Shown here: in pieces, positions 52,543 through 53,770 of the stretch | Position numbering within the stretch: position 1 is the first letter of the stretch | Layout of the letters: each line of letters opens with the position of its first letter | Virus record (IMG/VR): IMGVR_UViG_3300045988_098585 | DNA length: 64,000 bases | From: a virus | Reading direction: 5' to 3' (one strand) | Position numbers and translations under genes: made by a program | The notes under the pieces: model-generated | What the model saw: the letters and a program-made list of their open reading frames with translations, nothing else | Told to the model about the DNA's origin: nothing | Database searches by the model: none

Positions 52543-52842
52543 TTATTTAAGAAAAGCACCTTTATTTTCTTCTTCCTCTGCTGCCATATCTCGGCACATT
52601 TTCAGTACATTAAAGTACTCTCCAAGATTATTATTATAGAGCAGCTTTGCTATCTGATGCACAAAAGATGACTTACGTCCATCTTGTTGCAAAGTCACTA
52701 TCTGGCTCGCTGGCATCATCAAGAACTGCTCCATAATTTCAACCTTTTCCTTAGAGGAAAGAAGTTTCTTGGTAGGAAGCAGAAATCCAACTTCCTCCAA
52801 GATTCGTGTTTTGACTGACTTAACCTTCATACTTGTCGCCAT
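52543..52842 (-). CDS. hypothetical protein
   Basis: 99-aa ORF overlapping the 3' end of the PRTase-FolE gene by 23 nt. Confidence 0.4.
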   Translation of the reverse strand: MATSMKVKSVKTRILEEVGFLLPTKKLLSSKEKVEIMEQFLMMPASQIVTLQQDGRKSSFVHQIAKLLYNNNLGEYFNVLKMCRDMAAEEEENKGAFLK

Positions 52843-53770
52843 TTACGAGGTTCATAAACTCAGCCCTCACTTGTGGGTCATCCTTAAAAGCACCTTCAAG
52901 GTAAGAAGAGGTCATAATACCCTTCTTCTTTGCGCCTCTAAACTCTTTGCAAGAATGGTGTCCCTTCATAACGAGAGCAATACCAAGTGGTGGATATTCG
53001 CTACCGAGAGCCTCTTTCAGCATATCTACGATGTCGTGTACCAATCGCTCCTGTATCTGTAAGCGAGCGGAGCAGTAATCAACCACACGGCCAATCTTAG
53101 AGATACCGAGTATCTTTCCTTTTGGGTTCGGAATATATGCGAACCAATACTTGCCCCAAAACCAAACACAATGATGTTCGCAGTTTGAATGGAAATCGCC
53201 TTGGTCGATAACCATGTTATCATAGACGATACCATCCTTGCCGTTATCAAAGGTCGTAATCTTTGGTTTCTGTGATGGGTCGTAACCTCTGAATATCTCT
53301 TTCCACATTCTGATAATGCGGTCGGGTGTACCCTTTAAGCCTTCACGATTAGGGTCTTCGCCAATGTACTCCAATATGCGGACGATATTATCCTCAACAG
53401 TTACCTCGTGCTCATCGGGGAAGATAAGCCAATCATTAGCTCCAACGATACCACCACAGAAAGATACCTTGTCCTTAGAGCGTTCCTTAACGAAGGTAAC
53501 CGCCGTATCGTAGTTGCTAAATACCTCAATAGTCTTGCCGCTATCGCAAATATCATCAACAATAAGGGTTTTAGGGGTAATCTTACGAATATCGCATTCG
53601 ATACGGATGCCAAGCAACTCAGAGAGCTGAATAGCTGTAAAATAGCCTCCTCTTGGAATAGGGTAGATTGCATCATAGCTTTTACCTTTATCCTTAACCT
53701 GTTCAGCCATTGCACTGATAGCAGTCTTATAGTAATTATAATCTATCTGAACTTTATTAGAATCTTTCAT
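52820..53770 (-). CDS. folE: fusion protein: Gpt-like type I phosphoribosyltransferase domain plus GTP cyclohydrolase I (FolE)
   Basis: N-terminus YPIPRGGYFTAIQLSELLGIRIE...TLIVDDICDSGKTIE...NDWLIFPDE (PRPP-binding loop). C-terminus EGLKGTPDRIIRMWKEIF...FHSNCEHHCVWFWGKYWFAYIP...GISKIGRVVDYCSARLQIQERL...MKGHHSCKEFRG (FolE zinc and active-site motifs). Confidence 0.8.
   Translation of the reverse strand: MKDSNKVQIDYNYYKTAISAMAEQVKDKGKSYDAIYPIPRGGYFTAIQLSELLGIRIECDIRKITPKTLIVDDICDSGKTIEVFSNYDTAVTFVKERSKDKVSFCGGIVGANDWLIFPDEHEVTVEDNIVRILEYIGEDPNREGLKGTPDRIIRMWKEIFRGYDPSQKPKITTFDNGKDGIVYDNMVIDQGDFHSNCEHHCVWFWGKYWFAYIPNPKGKILGISKIGRVVDYCSARLQIQERLVHDIVDMLKEALGSEYPPLGIALVMKGHHSCKEFRGAKKKGIMTSSYLEGAFKDDPQVRAEFMNLVNGDKYEG

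Follow-up and report, generated by a model that had tools for sequence, protein, structure and literature searches.

Why should a phage gene cluster for 7-deazaguanine modification of DNA carry a phosphoribosyltransferase (PRT) joined to the first enzyme of the pathway? The question is raised by a gut phage gene, an open reading frame (ORF) in the viral record IMGVR_UViG_3300045988_098585 of IMG/VR, a stretch of 64,000 nucleotides that was analysed as a whole and is called the window here. The ORF (positions 52820-53770, minus strand) runs uninterrupted from ATG to stop, encodes 316 amino acids, and joins a compact type I PRT domain resembling xanthine-guanine PRT (XGPRT) (53396-53770; residues 1-125) to a complete GTP cyclohydrolase I (GCH-I, FolE; 52820-53395; residues 126-316 and the stop codon). 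The five canonical genes of the phage pathway, FolE, QueD, QueE, QueC and DpdA, are co-located with it in an operon-like block beside the terminase genes. The best explanation is that the fusion is a bifunctional enzyme of the phage 7-deazaguanine DNA-modification pathway, with dPreQ0 as the predicted product. We put at roughly one in two the probability that its PRT domain is an active, minimal XGPRT-like 6-oxopurine (guanine) salvage enzyme feeding FolE.

One reading frame, two domains

The sequence-only reading of this locus had proposed a Gpt-like type I PRT fused to a complete FolE, had named a structure model and a survey of related phages as checks, and had pointed to an assembly artefact as one way in which the proposal might fail. 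An artefact or a split gene was ruled out, as every homologue listed was full length: all 120 matches listed were 309-316 amino acids long, covered 97-100% of the query, and came from independent metagenome contigs. One of them carries the name FolE of Leyella stercorea. The AlphaFold model of the full-length fusion showed two domains (mean pLDDT 81, pTM 0.48), the packing between which was not confident. A candidate two-gene version (L005; P0128 followed by a FolE of 161 amino acids) was rejected as a frameshift or deletion within a fused gene, since the frame breaks at '...YIGEDT' and a stop, and then continues as '...TPDRIIRMW...' in the +1 frame. No near-identical DNA was found among the cultured phages by megablast.

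The assignment of the N-terminal domain to the type I PRTs was upheld by several lines of analysis. The family phrog_8995, 'phosphoribosyl transferase', matched residues 4-125 with E = 8e-10, and many homologues bear a precomputed match to PF00156. When a PRT family profile built from 58 relatives was run against the PDB, the best match was the P. horikoshii purine PRT 1vdm (1.5e-24), with the S. solfataricus HGXPRT (4e-20) and the E. coli and Yersinia XGPRTs (about 1e-15 to 1e-16) behind it. Because Foldseek with the full-length model returned FolE only among the matches listed, the N-terminal domain was modelled apart. Residues 1-125 alone gave a pLDDT of 92 and a pTM of 0.85, and the fold was XGPRT-like: among the 50 PDB matches listed by Foldseek, nearly all were 6-oxopurine PRTs of the XGPRT group, and the top matches (5xtk, 1a97 and 4jls) had a probability of 1.00 and a TM of ~0.8. 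The exceptions among those listed were the S. solfataricus adenine PRT 4trb and an uncharacterised, ppGpp-bound protein, 5vog. Taken together, the phrog_8995 match, the family profile, the AlphaFold model and the Foldseek matches place the domain among the PRTs far beyond chance, despite the weak single-sequence scores given below.

The three motifs lie where the sequence-only reading had put them. The pyrophosphate-binding loop, PRGGYF (residues 39-44; 53639-53656), is part of a PIPRGGY segment (residues 37-43) that aligns with the 'SRGG' of XGPRT, and its R40, G41 and G42 are invariant across the family alignments. The PRPP (phosphoribosyl pyrophosphate), or ribose-5-phosphate, loop LIVDDICDSGKT (residues 69-80; 53531-53566) was recognised by its conservation in the family and by its alignment with XGPRT. 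In this loop, the acidic pair that binds ribose, at the ribose and Mg site, is matched by D72 and D73, and the 5'-phosphate site by S77, G78 and T80. In the profile alignment, D76 falls on the aspartate of the '[DE]DxxD[TS]GxT' signature, the XGPRT counterpart of which is 'VIDDLVDTGGT'. K95 (53486-53488), aligned with the lysine of the XGPRT 'IFAKP', is conserved among the close relatives (at least 90% in their alignment). The C-terminal 'hood' motif, WLIFPDE (residues 114-120; 53411-53431), places W114 on the tryptophan of the XGPRT 'WIEQPWD'. At ~30% identity, P39, R40, G41, G42, D72, D73, D76, G78, T80, W114, P118 and E120 are invariant or nearly so.

The catalytic-type residues of the domain are thus intact, and the set by which 6-oxopurines are recognised (D76, K95 and W114) is present, conserved and aligned with the aspartate, lysine and tryptophan of XGPRT. 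We take the position of D76 to be that of the aspartate contacting N7 in 6-oxopurine PRTs such as HGPRT and XGPRT, an atom that 7-deazapurines lack. The position of K95 is presumably that of the O6-binding lysine of the XGPRT structures, and W114 is assumed to correspond to the purine-stacking tryptophan of XGPRT.

The E. coli and Yersinia XGPRTs (Gpt; 1NUL, 1A95-1A98, 5XTK) and the archaeal 1VDM and 4Z1O have the same fold as the phage domain (TM ~0.8). XGPRT and the archaeal 6-oxopurine PRTs also share with it the RGG loop, the DDxxD[ST]GxT motif, the 'FAKP' lysine and the Trp-x-x-x-P-[WD]-[DE] hood. However, the phage PRT comprises ~125 amino acids, against 150-180 in these enzymes, and its identity to them is merely 15-25%. 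We regard the N-terminal domain as a putative phage branch of this group, distinct and minimal.

The claim that the rest of the protein is a complete FolE was likewise confirmed. PF01227 matched residues 126-309 with 166 bits against a cut-off of 27 (E = 6e-49), over profile positions 2-178 of 179, and the NCBIfam FolE subfamily NF006826 scored 167.1 bits against 162; the top Foldseek matches of the full-length model were FolE structures. The zinc-binding and catalytic motif C197-E-H-H200 lies at 53171-53182 and H272-S-C274 at 52949-52957, and the QIQERL at residues 238-243 is the Q-x-Q-E-R guanine-binding motif. In the alignment to solved GCH-I structures, the triphosphate-binding positions hold the basic residues R151, R154, K225, R228 and R278, and S224 is aligned as well. 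Judged on these residues, the C-terminal domain is an ordinary, canonical GTP cyclohydrolase I of type IA. The possibility that FolE uses the PRT product GMP directly was rejected, as all of the GCH-I triphosphate-binding residues are kept.

The window has a FolE of the subgroup characterised by 'CEHHCVWFWG' and 'GHHSCKEFRG' (residues 197-206 and 270-278; nucleotides ~52937-53182), where most relatives instead have 'CEHHMMPFFG' and 'GEHLCKTMRG'. Among the homologues, the two FolE subtypes are paired with different N-domain subtypes, which suggests recombination between the domains. Two further PRT-FolE fusions, P0134 (489 amino acids) and P0145 (564 amino acids), carry an intein in FolE just ahead of the CEHH motif, and the intein of P0145 has an HNH endonuclease inside it.

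Spread of the PRT family and its coupling to FolE

An exhaustive HMMER search with residues 1-125 yielded 1114 representatives at 50% clustering, most of which were stand-alone PRTs of 115-155 amino acids. PRT-FolE fusions of ~290-312 amino acids were found in several distinct clusters (P0155, P0197, P0240, P0248), and one representative, P0165, was a MazG-PRT fusion. The profile search gave 7405 PRT clusters at 90% identity. A single-protein scan of cellular genomes returned six weak loci, none with que genes nearby, which would fit a family that is mainly phage-borne.

The PRT profile was used to fetch 80 IMG/VR viral loci, many of them on truncated contigs, and the pathway genes were placed by phmmer. 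FolE was found in 68 of these loci, QueE in 63, QueD in 57, DpdA in 48 and QueC in 46. The PRT and FolE were fused in 11 loci and directly adjacent in 42, with FolE ahead of the PRT in 26 and the PRT ahead of FolE in 16. FolE lay within 1.5 kb in 13 loci and farther off in the same locus in two; in five it was missing where other que genes were there, and in seven no pathway gene was found. The genomic coupling of the PRT to FolE is very strong: any FolE match occurs in 404 of 50,697 phage records (<1%), compared to 85% of the PRT loci. That fusion recurs, and that the two genes are found in either order, argues that the pairing is under selection. The FolE-PRT pair of Brevundimonas phage MaInes is intact with QueC, QueD and QueE ~8 kb off, past the DNA polymerase.

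The same fusion is carried by cultured phages of the Queuovirinae. Vibrio phage VpKK5 gp32 (300 amino acids; L010, 6007-6909), labelled just 'GTP cyclohydrolase', is a PRT-FolE fusion within a queE-queC-queD-folE-dpdA cluster. In Pseudomonas phage PaMx25 (NC_041953; L011, 4862-5792), the fusion is a continuous ORF from 'MQLTLNH...'; RefSeq has folE begin at 'VFPWEGD...', within the PRT domain, and annotates a 'hypothetical protein' over the PRT part in a different frame. Related phages of Pseudomonas, Xanthomonas, Stenotrophomonas and Sphingomonas showed a tblastn match over both domains. In Brevundimonas phages and in Flavobacterium phage immuto_2-6A, the PRT gene is next to that of FolE, and in Cellulophaga phage phiST the PRT lies beside nucleotide-metabolism genes.

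The sequence-only reading was not aware of the fusion in the described phage deazaguanine clusters. This stands for the searchable literature, in which the PRT-FolE association and its role appear undescribed, but the fusion is neither rare nor new in the databases: the sequences are already public, and some of the phage PRT genes are annotated. The term 'phosphoribosyl' does not occur in Hutinet et al. 2019 (PMC6884629), Cui et al. 2023 (PMC10516641) or the Queuovirinae paper (PMC10484667), and a literature search for DpdA or deazaguanine together with phosphoribosyl, PRPP or pre-replicative returned nothing relevant. A PRT in a bacterial que-gene island is mentioned, without explanation, in a review.

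In a rough neighbour-joining tree of the PRT (midpoint-rooted, without support values), nearly all of the fused forms, including those of the window, VpKK5 and PaMx25, fell into one deep, diverse clade, and the unfused forms of aquatic phages with family B DNA polymerases (PolB-type phages) into another. In the aquatic phages, a gene for a PRA-PH/MazG-like NTP pyrophosphohydrolase stands downstream of the FolE/PRT pair in 36 of the 80 loci (among L024-L092; e.g., L043, 1586-2125), and directly so in 21 of the 36. A gene resembling dCTP deaminase or dUTPase comes after the pair in 8 of the 80 loci (L018-L035), and the family B DNA polymerase comes after the MazG-like or dCTP-deaminase-like gene. 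No MazG-like, dCTP-deaminase-like or kinase gene was found in the fusion loci, the window included.

The role of the PRT domain

In the pathway as we picture it, the FolE domain would commit GTP, and FolE, QueD, QueE and QueC would lead from GTP by way of dihydroneopterin triphosphate (H2NTP), 6-carboxytetrahydropterin (CPH4) and 7-carboxy-7-deazaguanine (CDG) to preQ0, which DpdA would insert into the phage DNA in place of guanine. This base exchange releases guanine in stoichiometric amount, and the presence of DpdA in the window thus implies that free guanine would be produced. The PRT domain would combine free guanine, drawn from the DpdA exchange and from nucleic-acid turnover, with PRPP to give GMP. 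From GMP, GTP for FolE would be regenerated by two host enzymes, guanylate kinase and nucleoside-diphosphate kinase. A recycling loop closed in this way would remove the product of the DpdA exchange, sustain the supply of precursor and lower the purine cost. We infer catalytic activity of the PRT, guanine as its base and the benefit to recycling and supply from the conserved residues and the gene context.

The sequence-only reading had offered two mechanisms, guanine salvage and the making of a 7-deazapurine nucleotide. Salvage is the better fit to the window, because the residues that would read a 6-oxopurine bearing an N7 are kept, DpdA is there, and genes for clearing dGTP or for nucleotide kinases are not: the scans of the window cluster found no kinase, ribonucleotide reductase or NTP pyrophosphatase/dGTP-clearing gene, functions on which a route through nucleotides would depend. 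The modification in members of the Queuovirinae is partial and motif-specific (PMC10484667), and would therefore be post-replicative; the fused clade lies in or near this group, which favours the salvage reading. Furthermore, the titles of PDB entries 6z86 and 7alb give 7-deaza-GTP as a GCH-I ligand, and since it binds GCH-I, nucleotides of 7-deazaguanine made beside FolE would risk inhibiting it.

Several results weigh against the salvage reading. The fusion protein scored 22.9 bits with PF00156, under the gathering score of 26.3, and 25.5 bits with the NCBIfam xanthine-PRT equivalog NF006613, for which the cut-off is 138. The phage family has no flexible catalytic loop joining core strand 2 to core strand 3, with a gap of 19-20 residues relative to XGPRT; in the AlphaFold model, just residues 55-67 lie between strand 2 and the PRPP loop. 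The absence of this region of ~20 residues casts doubt on PRT catalysis and, like the carriage by phages and the fusion to FolE, sets the domain apart from XGPRT. It is on account of the missing loop and the scores below the curated cut-offs that a separate minimal branch is proposed. In addition, the substrate of FolE is not GMP, and the PRT and FolE activities are separated by two kinase reactions of the host. As GMP is two steps from GTP, the specific tie to FolE, seen as fusion and in both gene orders, is not explained by salvage alone. Finally, guanine and all 7-deazaguanine bases have the O6, N1 and N2 face in common, for which reason the two would not be told apart by the majority of the conserved recognition residues.

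The tie to FolE and the missing loop are also the main grounds for regarding the PRT fold as a non-enzymatic sensor or scaffold. Its ligand would be PRPP, a guanine nucleotide or the end product, and it would adjust the activity or assembly of FolE by direct contact. PRT folds are used for regulation in PurR and PyrR, and the control of animal GCH-I by GFRP is comparable. A repeated physical link to FolE, as a fusion, in both orders and even apart from QueC, QueD and QueE, is what would be expected of an interacting partner, and the structural neighbour 5vog is a PRT-fold protein crystallised with ppGpp. We nevertheless consider this role unlikely. The residues of the catalytic type, beyond those needed for binding, are all conserved over thousands of clusters at 90% identity; members of the family occur without FolE in the 7 of 80 viral loci with no pathway gene and in all six cellular loci; and the low-confidence packing in the full-length model does not speak for contact between the domains.

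A third proposal is that the PRT acts like TubE and ToyH on a 7-deazapurine, making a modified nucleotide from preQ0, CDG or 7-deazaguanine for incorporation at replication alongside DpdA. TubE, a PRPP transferase specific for CDG, and its homologue ToyH (PMC6112128) are, like the phage PRT, type I PRTs encoded together with homologues of GCH-I, QueD and QueE. TubE shows that PRT action on a 7-deazaguanine base is possible (PMC6112128), and is likened to the phage PRT here by its published description. It is a stand-alone protein of 194 amino acids from actinomycete antibiotic clusters, which have GMP-reductase, UbiD and Nudix tailoring genes and lack DpdA. By contrast, DpdA is present in the window cluster, and no nucleoside-tailoring family (GMP reductase, adenylosuccinate enzymes, UbiD, Nudix/HAD) was found among the window genes scanned.

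The phages with complete replacement of G, immuto_2-6A (fdPreQ1) and phiST (dDG), carry the PRT gene, which would suit such a nucleotide route, as would the MazG-PRT fusion P0165. The MazG-like and dCTP-deaminase-like genes of the aquatic clade, together with their family B DNA polymerase, resemble pre-replicative systems that clear a canonical dNTP. If these enzymes are dGTPases, they bear on the complete replacement of G. However, D76, aligned with the N7-contacting aspartate, is nearly invariant, and the link is to the first enzyme, FolE, and not to the base-making QueC, QueE or DpdL. The fused clade has DpdA and no MazG, dCTP deaminase (DCD) or kinase genes, and the binding of 7-deaza-GTP by GCH-I counts against the proposal as well. 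Incorporation at replication could not yield the partial, motif-specific modification of the Queuovirinae, and the known cases are held to be post-replicative since every such virus encodes DpdA (PMC10516641). A 7-deazapurine PRT is accordingly improbable in our estimate, and it is more doubtful still that the PRT opens a pre-replicative nucleotide route in which the MazG-like or dCTP-deaminase-like enzymes of the aquatic clade clear dGTP alongside it.

Least probable is that the PRT acts on another base (xanthine, hypoxanthine or an unrelated heterocycle) for general nucleotide supply and that its linkage to FolE is historical hitch-hiking: some relatives are named 'hypoxanthine' or 'xanthine phosphoribosyltransferase' in the databases, and the phiST gene lies near ribonucleotide reductase and away from the CDG genes, yet the enrichment of FolE in the PRT loci over phage records at large, the repeated fusion and the two gene orders argue for a selected pairing.

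The surrounding cluster and what the fusion would mean

All genes of the window cluster, from the DUF4417 gene through the MuF-ADP-ribosyltransferase fusion, are on the minus strand. Upstream of the PRT-FolE gene are QueE, a radical SAM 7-carboxy-7-deazaguanine synthase (54022-54612; PF04055, PF13353 and phmmer against phage QueE), and QueD, a CPH4 synthase of the PTPS fold (54612-54971; PF01242, E = 7e-28). A phrog_36422 protein (55121-55660), which likely starts at Met72 of a longer ORF (nucleotide 55660), separates QueD from QueC, the preQ0 synthase (55653-56309; PF06508, E = 1e-57; phrog_1550). The DpdA-type DNA guanine transglycosylase follows at 56338-57198 (phrog_887, E = 1.5e-53). In BLASTP, it showed 25% identity to the DpdA of PaMx25 and VpKK5 (E = 1e-13), and no match to the immuto DpdA3, and it is thus closest to the DpdA1-like enzymes of the Queuovirinae. 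QueF, Gat-QueC and ArcS were not found in the window cluster. Following the pathway logic of PMC10516641, their absence points to dPreQ0 as the predicted product.

Two genes directly upstream of DpdA are of uncertain membership in the system. A ParB-like nuclease-domain protein (57206-57877; phrog_17622, phrog_940, phrog_620) lies beside DpdA, and a DUF4417 protein (58198-58962; PF14386, E = 9e-33) occupies the same place in four related contigs (L001-L004). Both proteins may assist the transglycosylase in the manner of DpdB. The family phrog_940 combines ParB-like and DUF4417 domains in a single 'nuclease' family. Between QueE and the PRT-FolE gene, an ORF of 59 amino acids (53777-53956) with a CxxC...C pattern (CMQCGASYEVC) matched no family in the scans; it may be a small zinc-binding protein, or no gene at all.

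The PRT-FolE gene is followed by an ORF of 99 amino acids, a DUF5681 protein that is possibly the small terminase subunit, and the TerL, portal and MuF-ADP-ribosyltransferase fusion genes. The TerL, portal and MuF genes establish the phage context. The MuF-ADP-ribosyltransferase fusion is a protein of 937 amino acids (45574-48387, minus strand) with a Mu-F-like head-morphogenesis region and a C-terminal ADP-ribosyltransferase exoenzyme domain (PF03496, E = 4.5e-18). It is adjoined on the opposite strand by an ADP-ribosylglycohydrolase gene (44429-45217, plus strand; PF03747, E = 3.5e-33). The pair could be an ejected ADP-ribosylating effector with its reversing enzyme.

The contigs that carry the Leyella stercorea FolE (P0057; L001-L004) are syntenic with the window over DUF4417, a DpdA-like gene, QueD, QueE, PRT-FolE, TerL and portal, and their fusion protein is 73% identical to that of the window. 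QueC was undetectable in these four contigs, and their DpdA-like gene differs from that of the window. As QueC was not detected, the DNA base there may be derived from CDG (dCDG or dDG), and not be dPreQ0. In one of them (L004, 15362-16444), the portal is cut to 350 amino acids and followed by a tyrosine integrase gene (PF00589); this layout suggests an insertion or else a relative that is rearranged or temperate.

The phage 7-deazaguanine clusters described to date (PMC6884629, PMC10516641, PMC10484667) have the same five genes as the window, FolE-QueD-QueE-QueC-DpdA, but no phosphoribosyltransferase belongs to the pathway as described. The nearest parallel is the known Gat-QueC fusion, in which phage clusters likewise join an accessory catalytic domain to one of the core enzymes. 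The Gat domain alters the final product (dG+), whereas a PRT on the first enzyme is not expected to change it.

The pathway has been regarded as fully enumerated, with FolE, QueD, QueE, QueC and DpdA, and tailoring enzymes as optional additions. The present gene suggests that there is a sixth component, conserved and so far overlooked, in the form of a minimal XGPRT-like PRT linked to FolE, with a range from phages of human-gut Bacteroidota to marine, freshwater and Pseudomonas/Vibrio phages. In several RefSeq phages, FolE has been annotated incompletely or in truncated form. Cultured phages of known DNA chemistry carry the PRT gene, the modifications of immuto_2-6A and phiST having been chemically determined, which makes the readings directly testable. 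A deazapurine substrate, if true, would raise anew the question whether the modification precedes or follows replication. If the guanine released by DpdA is recycled, the fusion would be the first described example of salvage within a DNA hypermodification pathway, and would reveal how phages can meet the expense in GTP of modifying as many as all of their guanines.

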